Source: Burkholderiaceae bacterium
GTDB lineage: Bacteria > Pseudomonadota > Gammaproteobacteria > Burkholderiales > Burkholderiaceae_E
Length of the DNA stretch: 64,000 bases
Direction of reading: 5' to 3'
NCBI GenBank assembly: GCA_049680625.1
Contig: JBAUID010000151.1
Location: forward strand, 4,738-68,737
Shown: piece after piece, positions 33,301 through 64,000 of the stretch
Layout: every line of letters starts with the position of its first letter
Position numbering within the stretch: position 1 is the first letter of the stretch
Translations under genes and position numbers: made by a program
Notes under the pieces: generated by a model
The model's database searches: none
Seen by the model: the letters and a program-made list of their open reading frames with translations, nothing else
What the model was told of the DNA's origin: nothing

Positions 33301-33302
33301 AC

Positions 33303-33743: not shown

Positions 33744-33762
33744 GTCGCCGGTTAACTTCCTG

Positions 33763-35580
33763 ATGGATTTTGAGCGCCTCAAAAACACCCTTATCGACCG
33801 GTTCGTTGCATCCGATCGAACCTGGGTGCGCTCAATCCTGTTGTCTATGCTTGTTCATACGGCACTGGCCGCCGTATTGTTCTTTGGCATTCAATGGAAA
33901 ATTGAAGAACCACCGCCGGTTATCGCCGAGCTCTGGTCCCCCGAAGAAACCGAACCTATTGTCCAAACACCCGAGCCGGTCGAAGTAACCCCGGTACCAG
34001 ACCCAACCCAGCTGGCCCAAAACGAATTGCAGAATGAAGCGATTCAGCGACGTGACGTTGAAGAAAACCTGCGCGCGTCAGCATTGGCCGAACGTCAGCG
34101 CGAACTCGAGACAGAACGGCTGCGCCGTGAAGCTGAGGAAAAAGCCCGGATCGAAGAAGAAATCCGGATCAAGGAAGAAAAACGGCTCCAAGAAGAGGCA
34201 GAACAAGAGCGCCTTCGCCAGGCGCGGCTGGCCAAGGAGCAAGCCGAACAAAAAGAGCGCGAAGAAGCAGAACTGAAGGCGAAACTTGAGCAGGCCGAGC
34301 GCCAGCAGCTGGAGGACGAGAAAAAGCGGCTGGAAGAACAAGCCCTTCGCCTTGAGCAGGAGCGCCAGACCGCGCTAGAAGAGCAACAACGACTTGAACA
34401 AGAGCGCTTGAAACGCGAGGAACAAGAGAAGCAGCGACTGGAACTAGAACGTCAGCAATTGATAGAGGAGCGTTTAAATCGCGAAGCGGAACTGCAAAAA
34501 CTTGAGCGGGAACGCCTTGAGCGCGAAGCACTGGAGAAACAACGTCTTGAGCAAGAGCGACAGCAGCTGCAAGCGGAGCGCTTAAAACGCGAGGAGGAGC
34601 TGCAAAAGCTCGAACAGGAACGCATCGAGCGGGAAAAGGCGGAAACGAAACGCCTTGAAGAAGAACGCCAGCGGCTCGAAGAAGAAAAGCTTAAGCGTGA
34701 GGCTGAAGTCGAACGGCTTGAACAAGAGCGCTTAAAGCGCGAGGAAGAGCAACGCTTGTTCGAAGCCGAGAAGCAACGGCTGGAGGAAGAACGGAAAAAA
34801 CGGGAAGAACAAGAGAAACTCAAAGCGGATGAAGCGGCCCGCCTGCTTGCGCTCGAACGCGCTCGTCTGCAAGCCGAACGCGAACAGCTTGAGAAAGAAA
34901 AGCTGCTGGCTGAGCAAGCCAGGCAGCAGCAGCTGGAACAAGAACAACAGCGCGCCGCAGAAAAAAAGCGCCTTGAAGAACAGCAACAGGCAGAAGAACA
35001 AAAGCGCGTAAAACGTGAAGAGCAGGAAAAAGCAGCCGCCCTTGCCCGTCAGAAAAAAGCAGAAGAAGAAAAACGCGCCGCTGCGGAAAAGAAAAGGCGC
35101 GCCGCTGAGGATGCAAAAAAAAGCGCGGAGCAAGCCCGTCGCAAAAAGCGCGAAGAGGCAAAGAAACGCGAGGAAGACAAAGCCCGTCAGGAATACCTCG
35201 CGTCGTTACAAGGCTCAGTCGGCGGCAGTAGCAGCGGCGCCGACGGCGGCCGGGCATCCACCGGCGGGTCGAGCGGATCCCGTGGGACTGTTGGTGGCGG
35301 TGGCCGTGGCAACGCTGGATATCAGGCCAAGTTAATTGCCCTGATTCGTGGCAAGGTTAGCTTTGCGCGTCGCGATGTTGGTAACCCGATTGCTGAATTC
35401 CGCGTGAAATTGCTGCCCAACGGGCGAATCCGCTCGGTTCAGCTGACCCGGCCCAGCGGTGTGGCGTCCTGGGATGATGCGGCTGAACGTGCCATCTGGA
35501 AAAACGACCCCTTGCCTTGTGATGATGATGGTCGCTGCCCGGATGACTTGATTATCACCCTGTCGCCGCAAAGCCGATGA
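33763..35580 (+). CDS. tolA: Tol-Pal system protein TolA, with a greatly extended charged coiled-coil domain II (605 aa)
   Basis: N-terminal TM (SILLSMLVHTALAAVLFFGI), about 390 aa of E/K/R/Q/L heptad-like repeats, a Gly/Ser linker, and C-terminal TolA domain III (GYQAKLIALIRGKV...WDDAAERAIWKNDPLP). Confidence 0.9.
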   Translation: MDFERLKNTLIDRFVASDRTWVRSILLSMLVHTALAAVLFFGIQWKIEEPPPVIAELWSPEETEPIVQTPEPVEVTPVPDPTQLAQNELQNEAIQRRDVEENLRASALAERQRELETERLRREAEEKARIEEEIRIKEEKRLQEEAEQERLRQARLAKEQAEQKEREEAELKAKLEQAERQQLEDEKKRLEEQALRLEQERQTALEEQQRLEQERLKREEQEKQRLELERQQLIEERLNREAELQKLERERLEREALEKQRLEQERQQLQAERLKREEELQKLEQERIEREKAETKRLEEERQRLEEEKLKREAEVERLEQERLKREEEQRLFEAEKQRLEEERKKREEQEKLKADEAARLLALERARLQAEREQLEKEKLLAEQARQQQLEQEQQRAAEKKRLEEQQQAEEQKRVKREEQEKAAALARQKKAEEEKRAAAEKKRRAAEDAKKSAEQARRKKREEAKKREEDKARQEYLASLQGSVGGSSSGADGGRASTGGSSGSRGTVGGGGRGNAGYQAKLIALIRGKVSFARRDVGNPIAEFRVKLLPNGRIRSVQLTRPSGVASWDDAAERAIWKNDPLPCDDDGRCPDDLIITLSPQSR

Positions 35581-35680
35581 CAAGTCAGTCTTCGCGGCGT
35601 CAGCCACGGGACCAGAATCAGCTTGTTACATGATGTGCACCGGGTATGCTCCTGCTCAGCGGCCCAAATGGCCCCTCCGA

Positions 35681-35686
35681 TATAAT
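35681..35686 (+). promoter_or_regulatory. Possible internal -10 element (perfect TATAAT) in the 182-bp tolA-tolB spacer
   Basis: Perfect TATAAT hexamer 77 nt upstream of the tolB ATG, but no convincing -35 element. E. coli is known to have an internal tolB-pal promoter. Confidence 0.25.
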
Positions 35687-35762
35687 CTGTTGTTCTGTGA
35701 TGGACTGATCGCAGCAGCGTGGCCACCCGGTTCAGCGGGTAGTTAAACTGCGGCCCAAAAAA

Positions 35763-37058
35763 ATGCCTAAATTCTTAGCGTCAAAAGCCGGTTCCCTGCT
35801 GATTGCCCTCGTAAGCCTGCTATGCCTTCTGCCCGGCGCAGTATCTGCGCAGATGCGTCTTGATGTCACCGGCGTGGGGGCGACGCAATACCCGATTGCT
35901 ATTGGCAATTTTGAAATCAGTGGTGAACCCGCGGAAAACGTGGTTGAAATCTTGCGGGCCGACCTGCGCAGCAGCGGCTTGTTCAAAATAATTGACCCAG
36001 GCTTTACCTTATCGGAATACGGCGCAATAGACTTTGCCACCTTGCGCAGCAAAGGCGCGGATGCCGTCGTTGGCGGATCGATTAACCGACTGGCCAATGG
36101 CCAGTACGATGTCCGCTTTCAGCTCACTGACGCCGTCCGCCAGGAAGTGCTGGGCACGCCAGTGTCGATGATCGCCGCCCCCAGCGATCTGCGTTACGCT
36201 GCCCACCAGATCGCTGACTACGTATACGAAAAGCTCACCGGGCAAAAAGGTGTGTTCACCACCCGAATAGCGTTTATTACCCGCAAGCGTGATGCCTATC
36301 GACTGAACATCTCCGACTGGGATGGCAAAAACATCCGTATCCCGCTGACCTCAAGCGAACCGATTATCTCACCGGCCTGGTCGCCGGATGGCAACCGGAT
36401 CGCCTACGTTTCTTTTGAAACCCGCAAGCCAGTGGTTTACGTGCACACCATCAGCACTGGCAAGCGGATTGCGGTGGCCAACTTTCGAGGCAGCAACAGT
36501 GCGCCGGCATGGTCACCAGACAGCAGTACGCTGGCTGTAGCCCTGACCCGTGACGGCAGCTCCCAGATCTATCTGGTTAGTGCCAGTGGGCAGGCTGAAC
36601 CTAAGCGACTGGTATCGTCCAGCGGAATCGATACCGAGCCGCAATTTGCACCCAATGGCACCGACTTATATTTCAGTTCTGACCGCGGCGGTTCGCCGCA
36701 GATTTACCGTATCAACGTAAACGGCGGTAGCGCCAGCCGCATTACCTTCGGATCCGGCTATAACGTCAGCCCTCGCATCAGCCCGGACGGTACAACACTG
36801 GCTTACGTCACACGCCGCAAGGGGCAACACTTTATTGCCCTGAAAAATCTTGAAAGTGGTGCCGAATCCCTGCTGTCTGACGGCGGCAATGAAGAATCGC
36901 CCAGTTTTTCGCCAAACGGACGCTGGCTGATGTATGCGACCAAATCAGGCGGACGGGACACCTTAATTGCCTCATCTGTTGACGGCCGGGTCCGACAACG
37001 CATGACCACTGATAGTGGTGATATCCGTGAACCGACCTGGGGCCCTTACGGAGGCTAA
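35763..37058 (+). CDS. tolB: Tol-Pal system beta-propeller protein TolB
   Basis: Signal peptide, then repeated PAWSPDG-type blades (SPAWSPDGNRIAYV, APAWSPDSSTLAV, PQFAPNGTDLYF, PRISPDGTTLAYV, PSFSPNGRWLMY). Confidence 0.95.
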   Translation: MPKFLASKAGSLLIALVSLLCLLPGAVSAQMRLDVTGVGATQYPIAIGNFEISGEPAENVVEILRADLRSSGLFKIIDPGFTLSEYGAIDFATLRSKGADAVVGGSINRLANGQYDVRFQLTDAVRQEVLGTPVSMIAAPSDLRYAAHQIADYVYEKLTGQKGVFTTRIAFITRKRDAYRLNISDWDGKNIRIPLTSSEPIISPAWSPDGNRIAYVSFETRKPVVYVHTISTGKRIAVANFRGSNSAPAWSPDSSTLAVALTRDGSSQIYLVSASGQAEPKRLVSSSGIDTEPQFAPNGTDLYFSSDRGGSPQIYRINVNGGSASRITFGSGYNVSPRISPDGTTLAYVTRRKGQHFIALKNLESGAESLLSDGGNEESPSFSPNGRWLMYATKSGGRDTLIASSVDGRVRQRMTTDSGDIREPTWGPYGG

Positions 37059-37094
37059 CCGGGTTTATCGAATCAACGAAACAAGGAAAAAAAC

Positions 37095-37664
37095 ATGAAC
37101 CTGCGTCTTTTGATTTGCAGCGGACTTACCGCCACCTTGATTGGCTGCGGCTCATCAGTGAAACTCGACGACAACCCGGCACGAATCGAAAGCCGGGGTG
37201 GCGCCCAGGCAGGAACAGCCGCGGGTGGTGCGCAGAGTGCCGGCATTGGTGGCGCCGGCTCAACCACCAACCGGGACGTCGCCCAGATACAGGCCGCCAC
37301 CCCAAGCGATCCGCTGGAGGAGCCCAACAGCCTGCTGTCTCAGCGGAGCATTTTCTTCGACTACGACAGTTTCACCATACGCGAAGAATTCCAGGGCCTG
37401 GTTGAAGCCCATGCTCGTTATCTGACCGCCAACCCGGAGCGGCAGGTTGTGCTCCAGGGCAATACCGATGAACGCGGCGCGCGCGAATATAATCTTGCCC
37501 TGGGCCAGAAGCGGGCTGAGGCAGTCCGGCGAGCCATGGCGGTACTCGGGGTCAGTGATAACCAGGTCGAGGCAGTCAGCTTCGGTGAGGAGCGGCCAAG
37601 GAATTTTGGTTCATCAGAGGCTGATATGGCCGAAAACCGTCGCGTAGACATCGTATACAAGTAG
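37095..37664 (+). CDS. pal: Peptidoglycan-associated lipoprotein Pal
   Basis: Lipobox LIGC, Gly/Ala-rich linker, OmpA-like domain FDYDSF...GNTDERGAREYNLALGQKRAEAV. Confidence 0.95.
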   Translation: MNLRLLICSGLTATLIGCGSSVKLDDNPARIESRGGAQAGTAAGGAQSAGIGGAGSTTNRDVAQIQAATPSDPLEEPNSLLSQRSIFFDYDSFTIREEFQGLVEAHARYLTANPERQVVLQGNTDERGAREYNLALGQKRAEAVRRAMAVLGVSDNQVEAVSFGEERPRNFGSSEADMAENRRVDIVYK

Positions 37665-37707
37665 AGAAGTCATCTCGGCGGGGTTCTGGATCGTTATCAT
37701 ACGAATC

Positions 37708-38484
37708 ATGCAAAAAACCCTGAATCTCCCAATTATGAAGACCTTAATTGCCTGTGTGCTGGCGGTGCAACTGTCTTCGGCATGGGCATTGTTTGAAGAT
37801 AGCGACGCCCGCAAGGCCATCCTCGATTTACGTGCCAAGCTCGAGCGCCTGGATATCGACTTTACCAACCGCCTGCGCTCCCTGGAGGCCAAGGTTGACC
37901 AGATCCAGCAACGGGCCGGCGGACAACTCGCGCTGCAGCAAGATCTTGAACGCCTCAGACAGGAAGTTGCTGCTCTGCGCGGGCAGCTCGAAGAACAAAG
38001 CAACGAGCTTTCGAAAACCCAGCAAAAACAACGTACCCAGTTTGAGCGAGTCGACTCCCGCATTCGCCTGGTTGAGCCCGTGCAGGTTCAAATCGATGGA
38101 CAGACCGTTTCTGTTGAACGGGCTGAGCAACGCATGTACGAGGCAGCCCTCAACGAATTTCGCCAGGGGAATTTTGATGCGGCCGAGCGGGCTCTGGATG
38201 CTTTTCTGATCCAGTATCCGGAAAGCCCCTACGCGCCCGAAGCAACCTTCTGGCTTGGCAGCAGCCAATATGCATTGAAAAAATACAAACTGGCTGTCCA
38301 GACTCAGTCCCGGGTTGTCGATTCCTTTCCGAGCAGCGGCCGGGCCCCTGATGCCTTGCTGAATAAGGGTTTTGCCGAACTAGAGCTGAATCGACGCACA
38401 GCCGCCAAGCGTACGTTCAAAGAGGTCCAGGAGCGTTATCCGGACTCATCCGCGGCGCGAACCGCGGAAGCCCGCGCAGATTGA
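37708..38484 (+). CDS. cpoB: Cell division coordinator CpoB (YbgF)
   Basis: Signal peptide (an alternative start is ATG 37735), coiled-coil N-domain, C-terminal TPR (YEAALNEFRQGNFDAAERALDAFLIQYPESPYAPEATFWLG). Last gene of the tol-pal cluster. Confidence 0.85.
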   Translation: MQKTLNLPIMKTLIACVLAVQLSSAWALFEDSDARKAILDLRAKLERLDIDFTNRLRSLEAKVDQIQQRAGGQLALQQDLERLRQEVAALRGQLEEQSNELSKTQQKQRTQFERVDSRIRLVEPVQVQIDGQTVSVERAEQRMYEAALNEFRQGNFDAAERALDAFLIQYPESPYAPEATFWLGSSQYALKKYKLAVQTQSRVVDSFPSSGRAPDALLNKGFAELELNRRTAAKRTFKEVQERYPDSSAARTAEARAD

Positions 38485-53719: not shown

Positions 53720-55066
53720 ATGAGCACTGAAAACTCCGGCTTCCCGACAGGGGATTTGCCCACTTTTGACCCGGCTACCCTGGTGGCACGTGACACCGTT
53801 CATCGCGATGTGTACACCAGCGAGGCAGTTCACCAAATCGAAGTCAGCCGGCTGTTTCGACGGGCCTGGTTATATGCGGGGCACCAGAGTGAACTGCCCA
53901 CCCCTGGTGACTACCTGAGCCTTGATCTCGCGCGGCAACCGGTGGTGATCATTCGTCAGCAAGACGGTAGCCTGGTGGCCCTGCATAACCGTTGTGCGCA
54001 TAAAGGCACGCCAGTTGTTACCGACAGGCAGGGGAGCACAAAGGGCATTTTGCGCTGTGCGTATCATGGGTGGACGTATAAACCCGATGGGTCATTACTG
54101 AATATTCCGTTGCGCAATGCATACGACAAGACCGCGTTCAGCTTTTGCGACGCCGCAATCGGCTTAAAACGCATAACCGCCGTTGAAGAATACCAGGGGT
54201 TTATTTTTGTACGCCTCAGTGACACCGGACCGTCACTGACCGATTACTTTGGCGAAGCCCTAAAAGCCATCGACAACATGGTCAAACGCTCGCCAGTGGG
54301 TCAGTTGCGATTGGTGCAGCCGCCACTACGTCATCGAATCGCCTGTAACTGGAAAATTTATCTGGAAAACATCAATGACGCAGTCCATCCGGTCTCCGCG
54401 CACCAGTCAGCATGGGCCACAGCACGGCAGTTCTGGCAAGGCAAAGCAGCTGAGGTGCCCAAACCGATGGCGATTGAACAAATGCTGCCCTTTGGTGCCG
54501 GTTACGACGTACTCAACAACATGGGGGCTCGAATACTGCCAAACGGCCATAGCTTCTTCGGCACAAAATCCAATATTCATTCTAATTACGCGGCTCTAAG
54601 TGACTATCAGCTCGCCATGCATGCAGCCTACGGCAAACAAGCCAGCGACCAGATTCTTGGTTTTCAGTCGCAGAACACCGTGTTGTATCCAGGCCTGTCG
54701 GTGAAACCGTCACCATTGTCGATGCGGGTTCTCAGACCAGTATCAGCCGGAGAAACCATCCTCGAAGTCTGGGCATTTGAGGCCATTGGTGCACCGCCAG
54801 ATCTTTTGGAGCGTGCGTTGACTTATAACCGGGTTGCCTTCTCACCGATGTCCGTCGTGGCCCACGATGACATCCACATATTTGAAGCCGTTCAACAATG
54901 CCTGGTTTCCGACGCCAATCCGTGGATCAGCTTACACCGTGACGCCTCTCCCGAATTATTGGCTGTTGAAGGCCAGCAACCCATTGACATCAACAGCGCC
55001 AACGAAGGTTTAATGCGCAATCAATTCCGTGCCTGGGCAAACCTGATGTCGGAAAACCCGGCATGA
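53720..55066 (+). CDS. Rieske [2Fe-2S] aromatic ring-hydroxylating oxygenase, alpha subunit
   Basis: Rieske motif CAHKG...(17)...CAYHGW. The catalytic domain follows, containing NDAVHPVSAH. Confidence 0.8.
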   Translation: MSTENSGFPTGDLPTFDPATLVARDTVHRDVYTSEAVHQIEVSRLFRRAWLYAGHQSELPTPGDYLSLDLARQPVVIIRQQDGSLVALHNRCAHKGTPVVTDRQGSTKGILRCAYHGWTYKPDGSLLNIPLRNAYDKTAFSFCDAAIGLKRITAVEEYQGFIFVRLSDTGPSLTDYFGEALKAIDNMVKRSPVGQLRLVQPPLRHRIACNWKIYLENINDAVHPVSAHQSAWATARQFWQGKAAEVPKPMAIEQMLPFGAGYDVLNNMGARILPNGHSFFGTKSNIHSNYAALSDYQLAMHAAYGKQASDQILGFQSQNTVLYPGLSVKPSPLSMRVLRPVSAGETILEVWAFEAIGAPPDLLERALTYNRVAFSPMSVVAHDDIHIFEAVQQCLVSDANPWISLHRDASPELLAVEGQQPIDINSANEGLMRNQFRAWANLMSENPA

Positions 55067-55560
55067 CCTCAACGACCCCTGCCACCGATGCGGGGCTCAT
55101 TGCGCAAGTGAATGAATTTCTCGCGCACGAAGCCGACTTGCTTGATACCCGGCAATGGGACGAATGGTTAGATCTGTTTGACCCCAATGGTCACTACTGG
55201 GTACCTACCAGTGCACAACAAACGGAACCCAACGCTTGTCCGTCACTGGCTTATGAAGATATCCTCTTGCTGAAAATCCGAGTCGAGCGCCTGCGACATC
55301 CACAAGCCCATTCACAACATCCACCAAGCACCAGCCAACATGTGCTGCAAGCCGCGCGGATTGTTTCGAACCAAGCCGAGCTGATTCTCACTAGGCAGCC
55401 GTTTTCCTATGTTGAACATCGGAGCGGGCAACAGACCTGGCTAACCGGTGTGGCCCGACACCGGCTGATTCGGCAAGGCCAGAACCTTCGTATTCAGCTC
55501 AAGCGGATTGACTTGCTCGGTGCGGACCAGGCATTACCCATGATCCAGTTGTTTCTGTAA
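55063..55560 (+). CDS. Aromatic ring-hydroxylating oxygenase, beta subunit (NTF2/SnoaL-like fold)
   Basis: 165 aa, overlaps the alpha-subunit stop. EFLAHEADLLDTRQWDEWLDLF...YWVP is typical of beta subunits. Confidence 0.7.
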   Translation: MTSTTPATDAGLIAQVNEFLAHEADLLDTRQWDEWLDLFDPNGHYWVPTSAQQTEPNACPSLAYEDILLLKIRVERLRHPQAHSQHPPSTSQHVLQAARIVSNQAELILTRQPFSYVEHRSGQQTWLTGVARHRLIRQGQNLRIQLKRIDLLGADQALPMIQLFL

Positions 55561-55830
55561 AGGGATCGTCAATAATTATGCTGCGACGCATCATTTACAG
55601 TCGGATGAATGGCAAAATTCTGACTTATTTCCGCACACTTTGGAATGAAAGCCCGAACCGCCCGCACGTTTTGTTATAGTTGCTCTCGCAAAAACCATGG
55701 TTCGCTATTCCAGACTGTGAGTAGCCATTGCTAATTTTGAAATGGGATCCACCCAAAGACTATTCTGAATAGTGCGAGGTAGTCCGGTTTAGCTGGTCGG
55801 CCGTTGTACAGAAGAAGGAGGAAGACAAAT

Positions 55831-56883
55831 ATGAAAACCCTGAAATATTCTCTACTGAGTGTTGCCATTGGTGCACTGCTCGCGACCGGTCCGGCACTTG
55901 TCACTTCAGACGCGAATGCGGCCGAGGTTGACGGACCCAAGGTTCGCTGGAAAGTAAACACCTGGGGTAAGCGGCGTGCGTTTACCGAAGACCTCGAAAC
56001 TCTGTCGAAGTATGTCAAAGACAAAACTGATGGCAATTTCACGATTAAAGTTTTTTACGGCGATCAGCTCGGTGGCCGTAAGCAAAACCTCGACAACGTC
56101 AAAGCTGGCGTCTTTGAAATGGCCAAGGTTTGCTGGGCTTATCACCCGGGTAAAAACCAGTCGAACACGGTGCTCAACCTGCCCTTCCTGCCCATTACCA
56201 ACTACGACATTCAGCGCAAAGTCTACGAAGCGGTTTACCGCCACCCGATTGTTGGCAAAGAGCTCGCCACTAAATGGGGGGTTTTCGTTTTTTCCAGTTC
56301 GCAATTACCGCAATACGAATTCATGGGTAAAGGCAAGCCGCCAACCAAGCTCGAAGACTGGAACGGTATGACAGTCCGCGCTCTGGGTGGTCTGGCTGAT
56401 GCCATGCGGGCATTGGGCGCAAACAACTCCACCATGACAGCGCCAGAGGTATATCAGGCAATCGAGCGGGGCGCGGTACAAGCCGTGTCCTTCCCGTTCT
56501 CATATGCGCATGCGGCATTCAAGACCGATGAAGTTGCAGACTGGTACACCCTTAACCTGGCACCGGGCTCGAACGATTGCCCGAATATTGTCAGCGCCAG
56601 CGCGTACGAGAAATTACCAGCACAGTACAAGAAACTCATGGAAGAAGGCCGTGACCTGGGCTACGAGTCTCTGCGCAAAGCCTATAAGGCAAAAGACGAT
56701 GAGCTGATTCCGAAATGGCGTAAGACCAAGACCGAAATCGTATACAGCGACGAAGAACTGGCTAAGTTCCGGAAAATTGCCGGTCAGCCGGTGTATGACA
56801 AATGGGTTGCTGACAACAAAGACAAGTTTGATGCAGCCAGCCTGCTTAAGTTTGTCATGGATACTGCCGCAGCCAGTAAGTAG
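55831..56883 (+). CDS. TRAP transporter substrate-binding protein (DctP family)
   Basis: ATG at 55831 after GAAGGAGGA. Signal peptide ...SDANA. About 350 aa, followed by DctQ and DctM genes. Confidence 0.8.
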   Translation: MKTLKYSLLSVAIGALLATGPALVTSDANAAEVDGPKVRWKVNTWGKRRAFTEDLETLSKYVKDKTDGNFTIKVFYGDQLGGRKQNLDNVKAGVFEMAKVCWAYHPGKNQSNTVLNLPFLPITNYDIQRKVYEAVYRHPIVGKELATKWGVFVFSSSQLPQYEFMGKGKPPTKLEDWNGMTVRALGGLADAMRALGANNSTMTAPEVYQAIERGAVQAVSFPFSYAHAAFKTDEVADWYTLNLAPGSNDCPNIVSASAYEKLPAQYKKLMEEGRDLGYESLRKAYKAKDDELIPKWRKTKTEIVYSDEELAKFRKIAGQPVYDKWVADNKDKFDAASLLKFVMDTAAASK

Positions 56884-56928
56884 TATCTCTCTCTGGCCGG
56901 TCTGACGTTTGAAGTCACCGGGCCGGCA

Positions 56929-56968
56929 AAGGCGCACTTCGAGTAACATCGGGTGCGCCTTGTTCGTT
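56929..56968 (+). terminator. Hairpin (9-bp perfect stem AAGGCGCAC/GTGCGCCTT) with a partial T-tract between dctP and dctQ; probable partial terminator or attenuator
   Basis: Stem at 56929-56937 and 56953-56961, 15-nt loop, followed by GTTCGTTTC. A second imperfect GC-rich hairpin lies just upstream, at about 56894-56927. Confidence 0.45.
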
Positions 56969-57110
56969 TCCCGGGGTTTTGTCTTGGGTACATTTCCAGA
57001 CTCTGAGATCCTGAATCCCGGGAAGACGTCGCAGTGTCAACCCCAGTACTTCTGAACATCCGCGAAACACAAACTTAGCACCCGCCTAGCAACCAACTGG
57101 CAGTGAAAAT

Positions 57111-57755
57111 ATGACCCCAGCACCACAGGCCGCGAGCCTACCCCCTAATGCCAGCTTGCTACAGCGGCTCGACTACTACCTGGCAAAGGTCGAAGACGGG
57201 CTGTCAATGGTGGCGGCAATGTTCATTCTTTTGCTGATGCTGCTTGGCGCTGCCAACATCATCGGCCGCAAACTTGGCATACCGGTCTGGGGTTATAACG
57301 ACCTCGTCACCCTCATTATGGTGAGTTTCGCCTTTCTCTCTATATCAGCAATGCAGCGCGTCGGCGGCCATATCCGAATGGAGCTTGTCGTGCGCGCGTT
57401 GAGCGGCCGCACCATGTGGGTGACAGAACTCATTGGTACGCTGGTTGCCATCTTCATCATGAGCATCCTGATGTGGTACAGCTATGAAGCCCTGGGCAGA
57501 GCTTTTTCCCTGGGTGATTCGACTATGGACAGAGAAATACCGACCTGGCCGTCGAAGATGTGGGTGCCTATTTCGTTCGGCGTCTTAATCCTGCGGCTGT
57601 TGCTGCAGCTATGGGGCTATAGCCGCATGATCATCAACCCCGATGCAGAACCTATTGCCATACCACTCTTGCATGAAGTCAAGGAGCTGGCAGAAAAAGA
57701 AATCAGCGACACCTTCGGTGACGCTGCCTCCACCAAAAAATCGGGAGCTGTCTGA
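57111..57755 (+). CDS. TRAP transporter small permease (DctQ family)
   Basis: Four predicted TM segments, 214 aa, stop overlapping the dctM start. Confidence 0.75.
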   Translation: MTPAPQAASLPPNASLLQRLDYYLAKVEDGLSMVAAMFILLLMLLGAANIIGRKLGIPVWGYNDLVTLIMVSFAFLSISAMQRVGGHIRMELVVRALSGRTMWVTELIGTLVAIFIMSILMWYSYEALGRAFSLGDSTMDREIPTWPSKMWVPISFGVLILRLLLQLWGYSRMIINPDAEPIAIPLLHEVKELAEKEISDTFGDAASTKKSGAV

Positions 57756-59113
57756 TGGAGATGTTTTTATCGGTTTTTGGCGCTGGCTTCTTTGAACGTA
57801 TGGCTGAGGGTGACGAAGTCACGCTTGGCGTGGTTGCTTCAATAATCCTGATTGTTCTTGTCTTGCTTGGCGTTCGCGTGGTGTATGCCACCGCCGCCGT
57901 TGGCCTGGTAGGTCTCGTATCTATGCTGGGCTGGACAGGTGGTGCTGGCAACGCCGGCATGGTCCCATACGCAAAAGGCACCATTTATTCGCTTAGCGTG
58001 CTGCCGATGTTCATCCTGATTGGCTTTCTCGCCTATCACGCGGGCATGACTGAAAAGCTCTTTGATGCTGCCAAGAAGTGGTTCGGCTTTGTGCCGGGCG
58101 GTCTGGCCGTAGCAACCGTCTTTGCTACCGCTGGTTTCGCGGCTGTTTCTGGTGCCAGTACCGCCACAGCGGCGGTGTTTGCGAGAGTCGCCATTCCGGA
58201 GATGCTGAAATACAAATACAGTCCGCGACTCGCAGCAGGTGTCGTTGCTGCCGGCGGCACGCTGGCATCGCTTATTCCGCCAAGCGCCATTTTGGTGATT
58301 TACGCGATTATCGTCGAGGAGTCGATTGGGCGACTATTGGTTGCGGGTTTCATCCCGGGCATCGTATCAGCACTCATTTATGCGTTGCTGATTATTTACA
58401 TGGCATGGCGAAATCCGAAACTGGGGCCGGCGATTAAAGGCTTCACCTGGCCCGAACGTATTAAGTCGGTACCAGGCACTTTCCCGGTGGCCTCGGTGAT
58501 CGTGATCATTTTCTTTTCGATGTACACCGGCTGGGCAACACCAACCGAAGCAGGTGCCCTTGGCTCTTTTGTCGTTTTCATCATGGCGCTTGCCGGTGGT
58601 ATGAAATGGCGCACACTCAGAGAGGCCTTGCTCGAGACGGCCCGCCTGACGGTCATGATTTTCTCGCTGATCTGGGGCGTGCTGATCTTTGTTCGCTTTC
58701 TGGGTTTTGTTGAATTGCCCACCATGTTTGCCGAGTGGGTTACTCACCTGCCCATGTCGCCGACAATGATCATGATCTGTATTTTGCTGTTCTACGTGAT
58801 CCTCGGCATGTTCATGGACGCAATCGGCATGTTGTTGCTGACCCTGCCCGTGGTCTACCCCGCTGTGATTGCGCTTGGCTACGATCCGATCTGGTTCGGC
58901 ATTGTCGTGGTTAAAATGTGCGAGGTCTGCCTGATAACGCCACCGATTGGACTGAATTGCTATGTGGTGTCGGGGGTTCGGCCAGATATTCCATTGCAAG
59001 ACGTGTTCCGTGGCATCGGACCCTTCTTTATCGCCGACGTCATTACCCTGGGGGTTTTCCTGGCTTTCCCGGCAGTTATTACCTGGTTGCCTAATCTGAT
59101 GATGAGCGGCTAG
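57755..59113 (+). CDS. TRAP transporter large permease (DctM family)
   Basis: 452-aa polytopic protein with typical DctM segments (ATAGFAAVSGASTATAAVF..., CLITPPIGLNCYVVSG). Confidence 0.85.
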   Translation: MEMFLSVFGAGFFERMAEGDEVTLGVVASIILIVLVLLGVRVVYATAAVGLVGLVSMLGWTGGAGNAGMVPYAKGTIYSLSVLPMFILIGFLAYHAGMTEKLFDAAKKWFGFVPGGLAVATVFATAGFAAVSGASTATAAVFARVAIPEMLKYKYSPRLAAGVVAAGGTLASLIPPSAILVIYAIIVEESIGRLLVAGFIPGIVSALIYALLIIYMAWRNPKLGPAIKGFTWPERIKSVPGTFPVASVIVIIFFSMYTGWATPTEAGALGSFVVFIMALAGGMKWRTLREALLETARLTVMIFSLIWGVLIFVRFLGFVELPTMFAEWVTHLPMSPTMIMICILLFYVILGMFMDAIGMLLLTLPVVYPAVIALGYDPIWFGIVVVKMCEVCLITPPIGLNCYVVSGVRPDIPLQDVFRGIGPFFIADVITLGVFLAFPAVITWLPNLMMSG

Positions 59114-59147: not shown

Positions 59148-59186
59148 ATCGCCCGGAACGTAAAACCTCCGGGCGATTTCTTTTTA
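59148..59186 (+). terminator. Rho-independent terminator after dctM
   Basis: Perfect 10-bp stem ATCGCCCGGA/TCCGGGCGAT (59148-59157 and 59168-59177), 10-nt loop, then TTCTTTTT. Confidence 0.7.
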
Positions 59187-59253: not shown

Positions 59254-59994
59254 CTATTCTGACCAGTCTATCAGTTCGAATGCCATTGTGCCGCCCACCA
59301 TAAACCGAGATGGTGACAACTCTTCGCGCGTCATTTTTACTAACCCAACCCCCGCGCAATACCATTCCTTTTGATTCAGCGGGATATCCCGCCAGCCAAA
59401 TGCCGCGTCCACCCAAAGACGGACCTTGCTGAGCCCGTCAACAACAATACAGTCGCCGAAGTCACCTGCCAGCGTGCTAACCGCTGCGCCGGTTTGCACG
59501 ATCGTATGTTCCATTGGAATTTTCGGATAACGGTGGCTAACCCTGTGTGGGGTCTGGTTGCGCCAGCGGAGCACATGCGAAGTGGTGATCGTTTCCCAGG
59601 AGTTGCCGACTTCGTAGGGCTGTTTCAAGACGTATTGATGCGGCACATCTTCAAGCCGATTACGCTGTAACGCACTTTTGCTGCTAACCCGGAAGATCCC
59701 GGTATCGTCCGCGCGTACCCAGTAGTCCATACCGGTATCGGTATGGCGGCGCCAGGCGATTTCGCCGTCCAGATTGGCTGAACCGAGCGCATCGATACGC
59801 ATTGGCACCTCGTCTGGCGTGGTGCCTTCAAAATGAGTCGAAACGTTATAGAGCCAGCTTCGACCTTTACTGATCGGAAAGTAGCTATCGTTTTCCGGAG
59901 CCTGATCACACGCCACGAGTGGCAGACTCACCAGTAATCCGATGAAGACGCGACCTAACCGTCTACCCGGGTTTGAATTACGACCAGGACTCAT
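59254..59994 (-). CDS. Hypothetical lipoprotein (fourth gene of the MotA/ExbB-like module)
   Basis: The ATG at 59994 gives MSPGRNSNPGRRLGRVFIGLLVSLPLVAC with lipobox LVAC. The mature part looks beta-rich. I recognise no family. Confidence 0.55.
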   Translation of the reverse strand: MSPGRNSNPGRRLGRVFIGLLVSLPLVACDQAPENDSYFPISKGRSWLYNVSTHFEGTTPDEVPMRIDALGSANLDGEIAWRRHTDTGMDYWVRADDTGIFRVSSKSALQRNRLEDVPHQYVLKQPYEVGNSWETITTSHVLRWRNQTPHRVSHRYPKIPMEHTIVQTGAAVSTLAGDFGDCIVVDGLSKVRLWVDAAFGWRDIPLNQKEWYCAGVGLVKMTREELSPSRFMVGGTMAFELIDWSE

Positions 59995-60022
59995 AGTTCG
60001 CAGGGCTACCAGCGCACGCAAT

Positions 60023-60532
60023 CTATTTCTCCGGTAGCTGTGGGTTGGGTAAATCACGGATCAAAATTTCCTGCTCATCCTTGCCCGGCTGCAACCATGA
60101 ACCGCCTTTACCTTTCCCCCGACGAATTTTTACGGTTTTGGCAGTCCCCATTTGCGAGACACCATCGCGGCCGCGCTTGAGAGCCTGTTCGATCTGGCTG
60201 TGTAGTGGGCGTGTGTACGGTAGGCGATAGGCGCGCGGATCGATTGCCCCGTCCAGGTTATCGTTGATTTCACTGACCCACATATACAAGCCGCCAGGGT
60301 TCTTCGCATTGGGTTCGTCGACAAATGCCGCGATCATTATGAAGCGTTCCGGCAGCTTATCGGTGCTCGGTCTGCCCATGATGTCGTGGATCGCAAAGTA
60401 ACCTAGAAAATAGATTCCGGTAGCACCAACAACCAGCATGGCCTTCATCCAGGCAGGCCATCGCGACCACATCAACGATGCGACCGTCAGGAAGACCAGA
60501 ATGCTAAATCCGATAATGATTGCAAGACTCAT
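60023..60532 (-). CDS. Hypothetical two-TM membrane protein with soluble C-terminal domain (third gene of the module)
   Basis: TM1 at aa 3-21 and TM2 at aa 29-48, then about 120 aa of soluble sequence ending in a K/G/R-rich stretch and PNPQLPEK. The start lies 6 nt after the upstream stop. Confidence 0.55.
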   Translation of the reverse strand: MSLAIIIGFSILVFLTVASLMWSRWPAWMKAMLVVGATGIYFLGYFAIHDIMGRPSTDKLPERFIMIAAFVDEPNAKNPGGLYMWVSEINDNLDGAIDPRAYRLPYTRPLHSQIEQALKRGRDGVSQMGTAKTVKIRRGKGKGGSWLQPGKDEQEILIRDLPNPQLPEK

Positions 60533-60538
60533 GTGATT

Positions 60539-61171
60539 TTATTGCCGGGCCGCCAGCGTTTTTTGCAGAGTATTGATGCCGGAAACCGAGCCGTCCTCCT
60601 GAACTGTGAAGCGGACCATTGTCGCCTCTGTACCGCGCTTGGCAAGGACGCGCAGGCCATAAAAAACAACTTCGGCGCGCGGATTCACCTTAACAACGGT
60701 CAGTGCGGCTTCAACTGGTTTGCCGGCGTTCGGATGCTCGACGCCATCTTTGCTTGATTCGTAGTATTGGGCATTAATAACGTATTCGCCTGCCGAGATA
60801 CCGCGAATCGCCACAACTTCCTGATTCAGCGGGTTTACGATTTTCCGGCCGTCGACCAGCACGGTGTCGTTCGACAAGCCACGATCGTCGCGGTCAAGGT
60901 GCATCAGTCCTGCTTCACGAGCTCGAAACCACACCAGCTCTCCGTTAGGCCCCTGGGCCCAGAGATCCAAATCGTTTGGATCATTATCAGGCCAGCTCAG
61001 GGTAACGATGTATTCAGCCTTGGCCTTAACATCACCCGCCTTGAGGGCCTTGGGGTTGATCGAAATCAGCGCGATGATGAAACAAAATACGAAGGCGATC
61101 AACATGTTGAACAACATGTCGTAGAACGGATCAACTTCCGGGTCAGCCATCCGCCGACGACGCCGACTCAT
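60539..61171 (-). CDS. ExbD/TolR-like membrane-anchored protein with an atypical, enlarged periplasmic beta-sandwich-like domain
   Basis: The N-terminus RRRRRMADPEVDPFYDMLFNMLIAFVFCFIIAL parallels the ExbD/TolR anchor (E. coli ExbD INVTPFIDVMLVLLIIF; TolR in this window VVPYIDVMLVLLVIF), including the Asp. The C-terminal 160 aa are unrelated to ExbD (TLSWPDNDPNDLDLWAQGPNGELVWF). ATGA overlap with the upstream gene. Confidence 0.6.
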   Translation of the reverse strand: MSRRRRRMADPEVDPFYDMLFNMLIAFVFCFIIALISINPKALKAGDVKAKAEYIVTLSWPDNDPNDLDLWAQGPNGELVWFRAREAGLMHLDRDDRGLSNDTVLVDGRKIVNPLNQEVVAIRGISAGEYVINAQYYESSKDGVEHPNAGKPVEAALTVVKVNPRAEVVFYGLRVLAKRGTEATMVRFTVQEDGSVSGINTLQKTLAARQ

Positions 61172-61926
61172 TGCGGATTGTCCTGCACAACAACTGCCAG
61201 CGCCGCATCTGGACTGTCGGACAACGACGTCGCCGATAACTGGGTGCCAAATATCTGCGCACGAGTAGAAATATCATCAGCAAACCGATCCAGCCGAGTC
61301 AATTGCAGCCCCAGCAAAATGTTGCCCACCAGACCAACCATTGTTGTCAACAGTGCTACGCCTAATCCTGCCGTCAGGTCTTTTAGCAGCTCTTGCGACT
61401 CAGTCGGGTCGAAACTCTGTATTTCTCCGATTGACAGGGCCAAAATCGAAAATCCGATCACTTTACCGAGTAGCCCCAGCTTCAGTTGAATGCCGTTCAC
61501 CCACCATGCCGTTGTGTGCGGGCCGTGCGCGCGCTCGTAAAGAATGTCGGCCGGAGCACCAGAGTCGGCCGGTGCGCGAGCCAGACCATGCCAATATTCG
61601 ATGGCCCAGCTGTTCGGATCTGCCTGGCGCCAGTCATCAGCCAATGCCAGATCAATGGCACGCCGCTGACGTGCTAACTCGCGTGACCGCTGGCCACACC
61701 AGAACGTTCCCCCGGTGAAGACGACGATGATGATTAGCGTAATCCCGGTGGGGTCGGCGCGAAAGAGTAATGCCCAGACACCCTCGACACCGAGCAGCCA
61801 TACCGCGAATAAAAGCAAACCGGCAAGCGTTAGCCATTCAAGCCATACTGGTTCAGTCGTTGACCGGCGAAGCGGTGTTGCAGCCAACTTACCAACCTGC
61901 GGATCCGAAGGTATCGCGTTCATCAT
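61168..61926 (-). CDS. MotA/TolQ/ExbB-family proton channel protein (orphan, not part of tol, ton or flagellar loci)
   Basis: C-terminal signature LGLLGKVIGFSIL...LTAGLGVALLTTMVGLVGNILLGLQ (compare TolQ in this window: IGLFGTVWGIMNAF...IAEALVATAIGLFAAIP). Four hydrophobic segments. Confidence 0.7.
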   Translation of the reverse strand: MMNAIPSDPQVGKLAATPLRRSTTEPVWLEWLTLAGLLLFAVWLLGVEGVWALLFRADPTGITLIIIVVFTGGTFWCGQRSRELARQRRAIDLALADDWRQADPNSWAIEYWHGLARAPADSGAPADILYERAHGPHTTAWWVNGIQLKLGLLGKVIGFSILALSIGEIQSFDPTESQELLKDLTAGLGVALLTTMVGLVGNILLGLQLTRLDRFADDISTRAQIFGTQLSATSLSDSPDAALAVVVQDNPQ

Positions 61927-61941
61927 GTTGACGATCGCCCG

Positions 61942-63165
61942 CTACAGTTGGATCGTCTTCAGAAACTCAATCACAAGGTTAATATTTTTCTCCGGCATGA
62001 CACCGCCCCATTTAGGCATCCCGTAATCCGGAAGACCGTTATTAATAGTTGTGCGAGTCACTTCGAGCCAGTCGTCGTAATGCCGTTTTCGAATACGGCG
62101 CAGGTCTCGCGCTCGTATTGCACTCGCACCATCTGTTGCATGACAGTGTGCACAAACATCATTAAAAATAACCCGACCAGCAGCAACTGGGTCCAGCGCT
62201 ACGGTCGGCTTTTCCGAGCTGCTCGCTTGATGGCTGGAGGCCTGTGCAGTTGATGGCGTTTGCGCCGCAGCCGGTGATGAAGTGGCGGCGGAATTTGACT
62301 CAGCCGACTTGTCAACAGGCTTGCCAGCTGGCTTGTTAACAGGTTCTTTATTAGTCGACACGGCGGTCACAGTCAGGTGATCAAGATTCACCGCACCACC
62401 CGACGGCATATGATATTTGAGCTTGAGTGCGGCAATTTGTGGTTTTAGTTCAGCCAGTGCATGGCTGATTTTTGCCTTCAGGTCAGGATGATCTTTGCGC
62501 ACGCCGACGGCCAATTCCCCTTGCAGATCTGTCCCTGACAATGGCACCACCTTGAAGCGGCCACCGTGGCGCGTCTGATTGTCATAGCCGGCGACTGGCC
62601 CCCAAAGAAATGCGACATCGACTTCACTCTTGATCAGCGCATCGAACACTTCATCCGACGTTTTGTAAGTAGTCGTGTCATACCCACCTTCGGTTGCCAG
62701 CAGGACTTGGGGAATCGTGCCGAACTGCATACCGATCCGGTAGCTTTTCAGGTCGGTAAGGGCATTGAATTTGAGATCTTTAGGCCCCACAACGGCATAA
62801 GACAAGGTCACGAAGGCCTCGGTTCTGTCCAGCGTCCGATAGCGATAACTCTTACCAGCAGGCACTGCAAATGTCGCATCGCAATGGCCTTTTAACAAGG
62901 TGTTACGCATAGCGCGCTTTTGGTAGTGAGTCAGCCACCAAATTCGCTCGACTGTCATTCCGAGTTTTTCGCCGACCAAATCAGCCAACTCGGTGTACAT
63001 TCCCGGCACATCGCCGTCTTGTTTGCTAAACGGCAGGTTATCCGGATCCAGACACACACGCAGTGTTTCCGCCTGCACCACGGTCGCCCCGGCAAGAGCC
63101 AGAGCAACCGTGATACAGCCAGTCACGTTTGCGCACAGTCGTGTAGAACTGCGCAACAACTTCAT
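61942..63165 (-). CDS. XoxJ/MoxJ-like periplasmic binding protein fused through an S/A/P-rich linker to a C-terminal c-type cytochrome domain
   Basis: ATG at 63165 after AGGAGG. Signal peptide. Family-3 SBP fold (ETLRVCLDPDNLPFS...). Linker ...SAATSSPAAAQTPSTAQASSHQASSSEKP. Heme motif CAHCH with a downstream Met in GMPKW. Confidence 0.7.
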   Translation of the reverse strand: MKLLRSSTRLCANVTGCITVALALAGATVVQAETLRVCLDPDNLPFSKQDGDVPGMYTELADLVGEKLGMTVERIWWLTHYQKRAMRNTLLKGHCDATFAVPAGKSYRYRTLDRTEAFVTLSYAVVGPKDLKFNALTDLKSYRIGMQFGTIPQVLLATEGGYDTTTYKTSDEVFDALIKSEVDVAFLWGPVAGYDNQTRHGGRFKVVPLSGTDLQGELAVGVRKDHPDLKAKISHALAELKPQIAALKLKYHMPSGGAVNLDHLTVTAVSTNKEPVNKPAGKPVDKSAESNSAATSSPAAAQTPSTAQASSHQASSSEKPTVALDPVAAGRVIFNDVCAHCHATDGASAIRARDLRRIRKRHYDDWLEVTRTTINNGLPDYGMPKWGGVMPEKNINLVIEFLKTIQL

Positions 63166-63184: not shown

Positions 63185-64000
63185 TTACTTGACGGTGAAA
63201 ACGTACATCGTGCCACCCTCCGGACTTGCTGCAGTCATCCTCTCGCCAATGGCACCAAAAAAGGCTGGAATCGACAGAGTGCGTCCCGAAACAACAGCAA
63301 CATACTGGACGCCATCAATCGTGTAAGTCATTGGCGCGGCGGTGATACCCGACCCAGTGTTGAAACTCCACAACTCTTTGCCGGTTTTCGCATCAACCGC
63401 ACGGAACATGCCCGAGATGTCACCATGGAACAGCAGGCCGCCCGCAGTCGTCATTGTTCCTCCGGTATAAGGCAGCGGATCCTTGTTAAACCAGACTTCC
63501 TTACCAGCGATCGGGTCCCATGCCTTAACACCACCTAAGTGGTTACCCGGACCAGCCTTACCCAGGTCGAAGTTCACACCGAGGTAGAAAGCACCGCGTT
63601 TGTATTCCGCTTCAATGCCTTCCATGTCCATACACAGATTCATGGTCGGAATATAAACAAGCCCTGTGTCCTTGTTGAAACTCATTGGCATCCAGTTCTT
63701 AGCGCCAATCAGGTTCGGACAAATGTCTGCCGCTTTACGCTTCATGCCCGGCCGCTTCGCATTACCCGGCGCTTCAATTGGCATACCGGTTTTCATGTCG
63801 ACCCCGGTAGCCCAGTTCACACCATCGATATACTGGGTCGCAGACAACAGTTCCCCGGTAGCGCGGTCAAGTACATAAAAGAATCCGTTTCGGTCAGCCT
63901 TCATGATGACCTTTCTGTCTTTGCCGCCCAACTTCAGATCGGCAAAAACCAGTTCGTTAACACCGTCGTAATCCCAGGCGTCATGCGGGGTCGTTTGATA
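63185..64000 (-). CDS. PQQ-dependent dehydrogenase, methanol/ethanol family, C-terminal about 270 aa (5' end outside the window); carries the lanthanide-type WDYDG motif (XoxF/PedH-like)
   Basis: The open frame continues to the window edge: YQTTPHDAWDYDGVNELVF...KADRNGFFYVLDRATGELL...ICPNLIGAKNW...GGTMTTAGGLLFHGD...W-repeat blades. Confidence 0.85.
   Translation of the reverse strand, partial: YQTTPHDAWDYDGVNELVFADLKLGGKDRKVIMKADRNGFFYVLDRATGELLSATQYIDGVNWATGVDMKTGMPIEAPGNAKRPGMKRKAADICPNLIGAKNWMPMSFNKDTGLVYIPTMNLCMDMEGIEAEYKRGAFYLGVNFDLGKAGPGNHLGGVKAWDPIAGKEVWFNKDPLPYTGGTMTTAGGLLFHGDISGMFRAVDAKTGKELWSFNTGSGITAAPMTYTIDGVQYVAVVSGRTLSIPAFFGAIGERMTAASPEGGTMYVFTVK

Follow-up and report, generated by a model that had tools for sequence, protein, structure and literature searches.

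How are the four genes that lie behind a putative lanthanide-type pyrroloquinoline quinone (PQQ) alcohol dehydrogenase gene in a Burkholderiaceae metagenome-assembled genome arranged, and what might they do? We analysed a 64-kb stretch of this genome (the window), in which the four minus-strand genes, here called g1 to g4, are found; L-numbers label the loci with which it was compared. The first gene, g1 (61168..61926; 252 aa, or 251 aa from the second ATG), encodes a candidate A subunit of the MotA/TolQ/ExbB family with about four membrane helices, and g2 (60539..61171; 210 aa) encodes a B-subunit-like protein with one membrane helix and a predicted periplasmic beta-sandwich of about 160 aa. 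These are followed by g3 (60023..60532; 169 aa), the product of which has two N-terminal membrane helices and is a candidate force-transmitting partner, and by g4 (59254..59994; 246 aa), which encodes a lipoprotein with the lipobox LVAC and two conserved cysteines. Directly upstream of g1, on the same strand, is a gene whose product joins a XoxJ-like periplasmic binding domain to a c-type cytochrome (61942..63165), preceded by the 3′ part of the dehydrogenase gene (63185..64000), which is cut by the window end and is complete in L001:6305-7987. A previous interpretation made from the letters alone (the sequence-only reading) had described this tight packing, and all of its junctions were reproduced: the g1 start codon, ATG 61926, follows the XoxJ-cytochrome c stop at 61942 after a 15-nt gap (the NCBI start is the next ATG, 61923); the g1 stop and the g2 start overlap as ATGA (61168-61171, reverse-strand sequence); 6 nt separate the g2 stop at 60539 from the g3 start at 60532; and 28 nt separate the g3 stop at 60023 from the g4 ATG at 59994 (MSPGR...LVAC). 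For g4, the longest open reading frame (ORF) begins at GTG 60057 and the NCBI annotation begins at GTG 59931, with the stop at 59254. A consensus scan of the minus strand between the module genes found no terminator-like site, and promoter-like matches were at background level. Spurious ORFs were ruled out, as each of g1 to g4 has hundreds of conserved homologues.

A GC-rich hairpin (59148..59186) with a predicted 11-bp stem lies between the convergent genes g4 and dctM, 68 nt beyond the g4 stop, and is likely to mark the end of both transcripts. Because a T-run follows it on the plus strand alone, the hairpin fits the convergent dctM gene, in agreement with the earlier description of a hairpin about 70 nt after the module without a U-tract on the module strand. 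The genes that converge on the module from the other side (53720-59113, plus strand) encode the alpha and beta subunits of a Rieske-type ring-hydroxylating oxygenase and a tripartite ATP-independent periplasmic (TRAP) transporter (DctP/Q/M); they share with the module this hairpin, which resembles a dctM terminator.

The four genes were found together far outside this genome, as the sequence-only reading had anticipated. In a 90%-clustered protein collection, g2 had 3,200 matches, and the best 120, all at ≥67% identity, spanned Burkholderiales, Hyphomicrobiaceae and Gammaproteobacteria. A one-genome-per-species scan recovered g2 in 381 species, and the co-occurrence counts given below come from the best 80 of these loci, or, where full flanks were needed, from the 24 loci flanked by 8 kb or more on each side. 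The partners of g2 were present in every evaluable locus (g1 in 72/72, g3 in 76/76 and g4 in 69/69), and the order of g1 to g4 was constant except in L061, where g3 and g4 sit apart on the opposite strand. This four-gene arrangement is far beyond chance. The window also carries a canonical ybgC-tolQ-tolR-tolA-tolB-pal-cpoB cluster at 32210-38484 (tolQ to pal, 32623-37664), the TolQ and TolR of which were confirmed against solved structures; because this full tol set is located elsewhere in the window, the module is additional to tolQRA, as had been claimed. The TolA encoded there (33763-35580, plus strand) is unusually long at 605 aa, with about 400 residues of E/K/R/Q/L-rich repeats that show as a strong AT-skew peak of 0.34 at 34001-36000.

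Is g1 a member of the MotA/ExbB family? Against PF01618, the window protein scored 19.3 bits (E=0.001), under the Pfam gathering cut-off of 22.9 bits, and all 32 close homologues matched the same family at E<0.01 (best E=2e-5), some of them above the threshold. Precomputed PF01618 hits were present for three g1 homologues and for the g1-like genes of L173, L174 and L176, and a Rhizobium phage homologue reached the cut-off at 23.0 bits. The motifs GLLGKVIGF and ALLTTMVGLVGN, the counterparts of G-L-(L/F)-G-T-V-x-G and A-L-x-x-T-x-x-G-L in the last two membrane helices of the family, are invariant among homologues, and in a profile alignment with hhalign, residues 176-208 of g1 (helix 4, the region of the second motif) pair with residues 162-194 of the window TolQ. 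A g1 profile search of all Protein Data Bank (PDB) chain sequences returned no match even at E=10. We consider that the MotA/ExbB assignment made by the sequence-only reading probably holds at the family level and is borderline for the window sequence itself.

The g2 protein begins with an arginine-rich N-terminus, followed by the helix EVDPFYDMLFNMLIAFVFCF with Asp14 and Asp18. The anchor of about 20 residues is invariant in 32 homologues, and the membrane helix comprises residues 15-38 in an AlphaFold2 (AF2) model. Among 57 distant representatives, Asp18 is at least 90% conserved, and W60, D67, D69, D95, G98 and E118 are invariant; the periplasmic part also carries an acidic loop, HLDRDDRG. 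In the AF2 model, which has a moderate mean predicted local distance difference test score (pLDDT) of 70, this part is all-beta, with about 11 strands and no helix beyond residue 38. The sequence-only reading had described such an N-terminus, an Asp-bearing anchor and a periplasmic part of about 160 aa unlike that of ExbD, and the invariant anchor and the all-beta model are consistent with that description. The protein shares with ExbD an N-terminal single helix, a conserved Asp near the cytoplasmic end and a gene position right after an ExbB/TolQ-like gene; the alpha/beta periplasmic domain of ExbD/TolR has no counterpart in its predicted all-beta fold. PF02472 (ExbD/TolR) did not match g2 or any of its 32 close or 57 distant homologues at E up to 5, and searches of Pfam, NCBIfam, PADLOC and PDB sequences found no family for g2, the last not even at E=10. 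A fold search of the model against PDB and BFVD gave at best E=0.02 and a template-modelling (TM) score of 0.3, which, because the model has a pLDDT of 70, is weak negative evidence. When the 32 and 57 family members were scanned with Pfam, beta-sandwich families turned up only sporadically (DUF2135, PPC, Y_Y_Y and Allantoicase, in 3-9 members each), and these results therefore do not support the labels "YfaP/DUF2135" (JGI) and "ExbD" (UniRef) as memberships.

As had been described, g3 has two hydrophobic helices and a basic, G/K-rich tail. An alignment of 67 bacterial copies showed a small conserved domain with the motifs GxPS..LPxRF, EP..K..G.lY.W and PRAYxLPY, followed by the G/K-rich linker and a conserved C-terminal peptide, DLPxPQLPEK. 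The gene lies immediately downstream of g2 in 76/76 bacterial and 78/80 viral loci, and its motifs, including the C-terminal LPxPxLPEK, recur in 68 phage copies as well as in those of the Rhizobium phage and Azospirillum. The protein matched no family of Pfam, NCBIfam or PHROGs.

The assignment of g4 as a lipoprotein held, since its lipobox, L-(V/A)-A-C, is conserved in 33 homologues, as are Cys182 and Cys213. Its AF2 model (pLDDT 89) is an all-beta open (half) barrel. Foldseek paired this model with 4fvs and 3fzx, two putative lipoproteins (E=6e-6 to 2e-5, probability 1.0, TM-scores of 0.38-0.44), and more weakly with LprG, LolA3 and DUF1329; the g4 sequence profile matched 4fvs at E=0.0099, and PF21347 gave E=0.031, below the cut-off for the window protein, with a precomputed hit in some homologues. 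The predicted structure suggests a LolA/LprG/DUF3108-like lipoprotein fold, and because the TM-scores are low, the relation to LolA/LprG-type folds would be distant. The sequence-only reading had cast g4 as an outer-membrane partner; no indication of an outer-membrane location was obtained for g4. An Asp at lipobox position +2 is an uncertain candidate for an inner-membrane retention signal, because the +2 residue is variable among homologues. The gene is confined to the bacterial clade of the window and is missing from 80/80 viral loci and from L176.

The neighbourhood of the module points to the metabolism of PQQ-dependent dehydrogenases. The enzyme encoded upstream is a member of the methanol/ethanol family of PQQ dehydrogenases (TIGR03075, 660.7 bits vs a cut-off of 480), and among proteins of solved structure PedH comes closest to it (6zcw, E=9e-135), the WDYDG of the enzyme aligning with the WDFDG of PedH. 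HDAWDYDG was found in 44/44 dehydrogenase orthologues, and this D-x-D signature, in which an additional metal-binding Asp stands two residues beyond the catalytic Asp, suggests a lanthanide-type PQQ alcohol dehydrogenase of the PedH/XoxF/ExaF type. The adjacent fusion gene contains the Pfam domains SBP_bac_3 and Cytochrome_CBB3, with a PedF-like cytochrome c part and a match to TIGR03871 at E=7e-31. The fused form, in which CxxCH and DPDNxPF are present, occurs at 38/38 orthologous loci; XoxJ/PedG and XoxG/PedF are encoded separately in the classical xox and ped clusters. Among the 24 fully flanked loci, a close dehydrogenase orthologue, always with HDAWDYDG, was present in 21 and the XoxJ-cytochrome c fusion in 22, followed by a PedA1A2BC-like ATP-binding cassette (ABC) transporter (12), a NosR-like gene (10), ApbE (9) and a TonB-dependent receptor (9). 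The order of these blocks varies by lineage, with the dehydrogenase before or after the module and NosR on either side, and the association is kept. A sister g2 clade (45% identity, a 516-member cluster) lies between a lanthanide-type dehydrogenase (DYD) and pqqABCDE, and has g1- and g3-like genes without g4.

In 13/63 loci, g1 directly follows the end of a gene for an ABC-2 permease. The set to which this permease belongs also holds an ATPase (TIGR03864, "PQQ-dependent alcohol dehydrogenase system", above cut-off), a YVTN beta-propeller protein and a periplasmic binding protein, which is the make-up of PedA1A2BC. No close dehydrogenase is present in three loci (Methylibium L045, Hydrogenophaga L077 and Sphaerotilus L084), and all three carry the Ped-like transporter directly upstream; in L045:5154-9120 the order is pqqC-pqqE-ABC-g1-g4, with no dehydrogenase within 10 kb. 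The fullest arrangement that we observed was that of L013 (3207-9287 for the Ped part), which reads pedB-pedA2-TonB-dependent receptor-binding protein-pedC-g1-g2-g3-g4-nosR-apbE-dehydrogenase-xoxJ/cytochrome-PqqU-like receptor. In Ramlibacter, a TonB-dependent receptor gene ends 2 nt before g1, and the receptor encoded after the cytochrome gene (L008:13034-15166) is most similar to PqqU, a PQQ importer (693 bits, E=4e-208, under the 1200-bit equivalog cut-off). Similar PqqU-like receptors are found in L013 and L023, which hints at PQQ scavenging in these Burkholderiales. Just past the window end lies a divergent NosR-like/ApbE pair (L001:2803-6095), with genes of the PqqB and PqqC families a few kb further; the NosR-like protein is a flavo-FeS membrane protein near the dehydrogenase that matched NF046105 with 473 bits, below the cut-off. 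NosR-like proteins and the ApbE flavin transferase are known from N2O reductase systems, and the NosR-like/ApbE pair would have a new function if it accepted electrons from the XoxJ-cytochrome c fusion. A SoxYZ-like carrier of the quinoprotein dehydrogenase-associated type (TIGR04557, 234 bits, above cut-off) was also seen near the module in Hyphomicrobiaceae (L006:2962-3816) and in the sister clade (JGI contig of P0430).

How widely is the module distributed beyond these bacteria? A g2 profile search over 1.84 billion representatives yielded 1,901 g2-related clusters, of which 314 were below 1e-30, with the wider-family pattern F-x-D-L-L-F-N...LINP...KAEF-I-T..W....D-x-D-L-W-V..P-x-G....HLDRDDLG..ND...N-x-E..T-I-R-G..PGEY. 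Viral contigs of IMG/VR (L092-L171 among them), scanned with distant members of the family, gave at least 382 confirmed matches to the g1-g2-g3 trio. In the best 80 viral loci, which have a GC content of about 36%, a g1-like gene precedes g2 in 77 and a g3-like gene follows it in 78, and g4 is present in none. Trio-bearing viral contigs also encode terminase, portal, head protease, primase and PhoH, and the phage A subunit is minimal, with about 150-190 aa and almost no cytoplasmic loop. The genes that directly flank the trio vary across 66 viral loci (GDP-mannose dehydratase/epimerase in 11, ClpS in 6 and Hsp20 in 5). The trio is also carried, as "hypothetical proteins", by 23 GenBank records of T4-like Rhizobium phages, in one of which, RHph_N34, it corresponds to EVC06_145-147 (L172:4438-5927); conservation beside the trio does not extend to the T4-like core genes of this phage, and PHROGs has no family for the trio. 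In RHph_N34, a 42-aa ORF with the lipobox LSSC (L172:5924-6052) overlaps the end of the g3-like gene and may encode a small partner lipoprotein or be spanin-like. Among bacteria, the chromids of Azospirillum brasilense and A. baldaniorum carry the trio beside BON-domain, tetratricopeptide-repeat (TPR) and regulator genes, with neither a dehydrogenase nor PQQ genes; on chromid p1 of the model organism A. brasilense Sp7 (L177:7142-9085), the trio is a distant copy that would suit genetic work, with g2 26% identical, and its neighbours are BON/OsmY-like, TPR, purU and response regulator genes. In A. baldaniorum Sp245, CCD01206 is g2-like and CCD01207 g3-like. All of the Azospirillum trio genes are "hypothetical" in RefSeq.

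Because the g3 motifs are common to the phage and bacterial copies and g4 is absent from phages, the conserved unit is g1-g2-g3. In a neighbour-joining tree without support values, the two dehydrogenase-linked clades are sisters and are nested within a mostly viral radiation, and the dehydrogenase-linked bacterial clade is probably a derived branch that gained g4. The link to the dehydrogenase that the sequence-only reading had drawn thus stands for the window clade, in which the close enzyme accompanies the module in most of the flanked loci, but does not extend to the core, which also occurs in phages and Azospirillum without a dehydrogenase.

The charges within the predicted membrane helices differ between these lineages. 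In the general family, the channel position in the first g1 motif is Thr (59/59 phage copies), and g2 positions 14, 18 and 22 are uncharged, Asp and Asn. In the clade of the window, the g1 position is Lys (Lys155, 77/77 bacterial copies), and the g2 positions are Asp, Asp and Asn. In the sister dehydrogenase-linked clade (L176:5056-6469), g1 has Thr, and the g2 positions are Asp, Val and Lys. Lys occurs on helix 3 of g1 or on the helix of g2, each time paired with Asp14 of g2, in two lineages only. A B helix enclosed by an A ring would be expected to covary in this way with helix 3 of g1, albeit judged here from two lineages, and the pattern suggests an ion site of the salt-bridge type, with a re-wired intramembrane charge pair. 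GldLM, which works via an Arg-Glu charge pair between subunits rather than a lone Asp, is a precedent for the Lys155/Asp14 pattern. Because the channel Thr of g1 is replaced by an invariant Lys, canonical proton conduction is not to be assumed.

The sequence comparisons confirm that the module exists as a strongly conserved system that has not yet been given a name; it is laid out like Ton and Tol and placed outside the ExbD and TonB families and Tol-Pal. Like the Ton system, it combines, in three adjacent genes, a candidate channel protein, a partner that spans the membrane once and bears an Asp there, and a membrane-anchored, presumably periplasmic protein with a flexible linker; in several genomes, genes for TonB-dependent receptors and an ABC importer are adjacent or in the same operon. 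It differs from Ton in that g1 matches PF01618 weakly and carries the Lys, the periplasmic part of g2 (about 160 aa) is predicted to be all-beta rather than the alpha/beta of ExbD, a lipoprotein is added and most loci lack a receptor. With Tol-Pal it shares four components of like kinds and the hhalign pairings of g1 helix 4 with TolQ and of the g2 N-terminus with TolR; in contrast, the predicted open barrel of g4 is not the OmpA-like, peptidoglycan-binding domain of Pal, TolB is missing, and its partners are dehydrogenase and lanthanide genes rather than division or envelope genes. GldLM and ZorAB are MotA/ExbB-type complexes with novel large periplasmic B domains and tasks other than Ton, Tol and flagella, but no sequence or fold match to GldL/GldM was found for the module proteins. 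Membership in the Zorya ZorAB group was rejected: ZorA matched g1 at E=0.03-0.09, nothing matched g2 to g4, ZorC and ZorD were not found, and g1 is without the long cytoplasmic tail of ZorA.

The closest functional context is that of lanthanide uptake. PedA1A2BC is a lanthanide importer required for PedH-dependent growth in Pseudomonas putida, in which the outer-membrane step is unresolved (PMC12997753), and lanthanide-dependent growth of Methylobacterium extorquens needs a TonB-dependent receptor and a Ped-like ABC transporter (PMC6850437). With PedA1A2BC, and with LutH and the Lut ABC transporter, the module shares a neighbourhood and a presumed pathway, given the Ped-like genes that precede g1; it differs from the ped and lut clusters in that PMC12997753 and PMC6850437 describe no MotA/ExbB-, g2-, g3- or g4-like component for them, and ExbB is not mentioned in the ped review. 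A gene set of this composition was not described in the literature searched, including accounts of ped, lut, xox and mxa (PMC12997753, PMC6850437, PMC10875860, 10.1101/2023.07.25.550467), and the module is also missing from a recent survey that covers homologues of MotAB (PMC12505986). The statement of the sequence-only reading that it knew of no accessory set of this composition was borne out by these searches and by those of Pfam, NCBIfam, PADLOC and PHROGs. Of the outcomes that the sequence-only reading had named as contradicting it, none that can be checked by computation was observed.

We considered that the module might be an unnamed, proton-driven branch related in design to Ton and Tol, which bacteria recruited for lanthanide/PQQ cofactor supply; this is the reading that we favour, although our confidence in it falls slightly short of even. 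According to this proposal, g1 would be the channel-forming A subunit of an ion-driven inner-membrane complex, presumably assembled with g2 in a 5:2 stoichiometry. The g2 protein would be the single-pass B subunit, the membrane Asp of which takes and releases the ion, with its acidic beta-sandwich in the periplasm. Work might then be passed by g3, if its domain is oriented toward the periplasm, to an envelope target via this domain, the flexible G/K-rich linker and the C-terminal LPxPxLPEK peptide, and g4, the clade-specific addition, could be an adaptor or a cargo holder at that target. In the window clade, the module would belong integrally to the gene system of the lanthanide/PQQ alcohol dehydrogenase, and the proton-motive force would power a step of cofactor supply at the outer membrane or in the periplasm: a lanthanide chelate and/or PQQ would enter through TonB-dependent receptors and be handed on, first to the PedA1A2BC-like ABC transporter and to the dehydrogenase, in a Ton-like manner without a TonB-family protein. 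A bolder version holds that g1-g2-g3 constitute a third, TonB-independent class of proton-driven trans-envelope energisers beside Ton and Tol, with g3 as their own transducer, largely spread by phages, used in bacteria for the import of rare earths and/or PQQ and marked by the Lys/Asp pair as a variant in ion coupling; we regard this as conceivable, but rather doubtful.

Several observations weigh against the cofactor-supply proposal. Lys155 stands in place of the channel Thr, and Asp18 is lost in the sister clade, so that proton conduction may have changed or disappeared. Phages commonly carry the trio, and Azospirillum has it without PQQ genes, which means that its basic job is not lanthanide-specific. 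The g3 protein shows no features of TonB: it has no TonB_C domain and no SxxxH, two membrane helices and not one, and a linker that is G/K-rich and not Pro-rich. The sequence-only reading had aligned the g2 anchor with that of ExbD/TolR, and the register was recovered, as hhalign placed RRRRxMxxPEVDPFYDM of g2 in register with RNRRVMNEINVVPYIDV of the window TolR, but the similarity was not significant (E=0.025 for a single pair). A hidden Markov model of the g2 anchor searched against 5029 ORFs likewise did not raise TolR above noise (E=13), and the likeness is a motif-level resemblance that is statistically non-significant. With respect to the receptors, any TonB-dependent receptor was found in only 13/80 loci, directly upstream of g1 in 5/56, and the locus of the window has neither a TonB-dependent receptor nor Ped ABC genes. 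Moreover, the receptors near the module have ordinary TonB boxes and could probably be serviced by canonical TonB.

The module might instead act in periplasmic maturation, inserting lanthanide and/or PQQ or assembling the enzyme together with the XoxJ-cytochrome c fusion. It would then be the lanthanide counterpart of the MxaACKL/MoxR-vWA genes for calcium insertion, accessory envelope genes beside the gene of MxaFI, a calcium-dependent PQQ methanol dehydrogenase, that are needed for its metal cofactor. The absence of a TonB-dependent receptor from most loci is expected under this explanation, as is the fact that the most constant neighbours are the dehydrogenase (21/24) and the XoxJ-cytochrome c fusion (22/24), which in the window are part of the same operon and lie directly upstream. 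The invariant acidic cluster of g2, with a loop of the DxDDxG type, could bind Ca2+ or Ln3+, and the LolA/LprG-like fold predicted for g4 might hold a ligand. Yet the acidic residues of g2 are equally invariant in the phage and Azospirillum copies without a dehydrogenase, and are thus no lanthanide adaptation; the module follows the Ped ABC transporter in the three loci that have no close dehydrogenase; and the von Willebrand factor A (vWA), MoxR and DUF58-type domains of the Mxa proteins are absent from g1 to g4 in Pfam scans, which places the two sets in unrelated protein families. Loading of metal cofactors is not known for any MotA/ExbB-type complex, which also counts against maturation, and we consider this role unlikely. 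Another conceivable role is that of a static scaffold, in which the channel is disabled in this clade and the complex serves at the inner membrane to anchor or organise the dehydrogenase, the XoxJ-cytochrome c protein and the NosR-like protein. The invariant Lys that replaces the g1 channel Thr (77/77), the Val in place of the anchor Asp18 in the sister clade and the adjacent NosR-like (10/24) and ApbE (9/24) genes would fit such a scaffold. Asp14 and Asp18 are nevertheless invariant in the window clade, the charges co-vary rather than decay, as in a re-wired ion site, and the membrane helices are extremely conserved, with an invariant 20-residue anchor; NosR, in addition, is absent in more than half of the loci. 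A static scaffold appears quite improbable to us.

The abundance of the trio in phage genomes raises the question of whether the module is instead phage-related or serves envelope surveillance (superinfection exclusion or Zorya-like damage sensing) and lies beside the dehydrogenase by accident. The faint ZorA matches in PADLOC (E=0.03-0.09) and the nesting of the dehydrogenase-linked clades in a mostly viral radiation in the neighbour-joining tree are in line with this idea. An accidental association is difficult to reconcile with the order with dehydrogenase, Ped ABC and pqq genes, which is kept across clades that are only 45% identical, and with the operon-like junctions (gaps of 0-15 nt) seen in many species. 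No ZorC/ZorD-like or nuclease effector genes were present, no PADLOC system matched g2 to g4, and no mobile-element hallmarks were found among the genes identified at the loci, and we judge this explanation very improbable. The use of the proton-motive force and a role in cofactor supply, as held by the proposal that we favour, are inferred from these comparisons.

The passage of rare-earth ions and PQQ across the envelope to periplasmic dehydrogenases is only partly known, and the module is a candidate for the missing energy-coupling step; it provides a concrete gene set for knock-out in culturable bacteria, among the carriers of which are Ramlibacter sp. AN1133, Variovorax sp. YR752, Ideonella sp. 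A 288 and Sphaerotilus hippei DSM 566. The family of MotA/ExbB-type motors would gain a new B-subunit architecture, a minimal phage A subunit, a third partner with a conserved C-terminal peptide and a natural Thr-to-Lys/Asp re-wiring. The phage reservoir was unexpected, in that a membrane trio of hundreds of phage genomes is wholly uncharacterised. Because g2, g3 and g4 are without a family in Pfam, NCBIfam, PHROGs and PADLOC and are "hypothetical" in RefSeq, defining these families would improve the annotation of several thousand genes.

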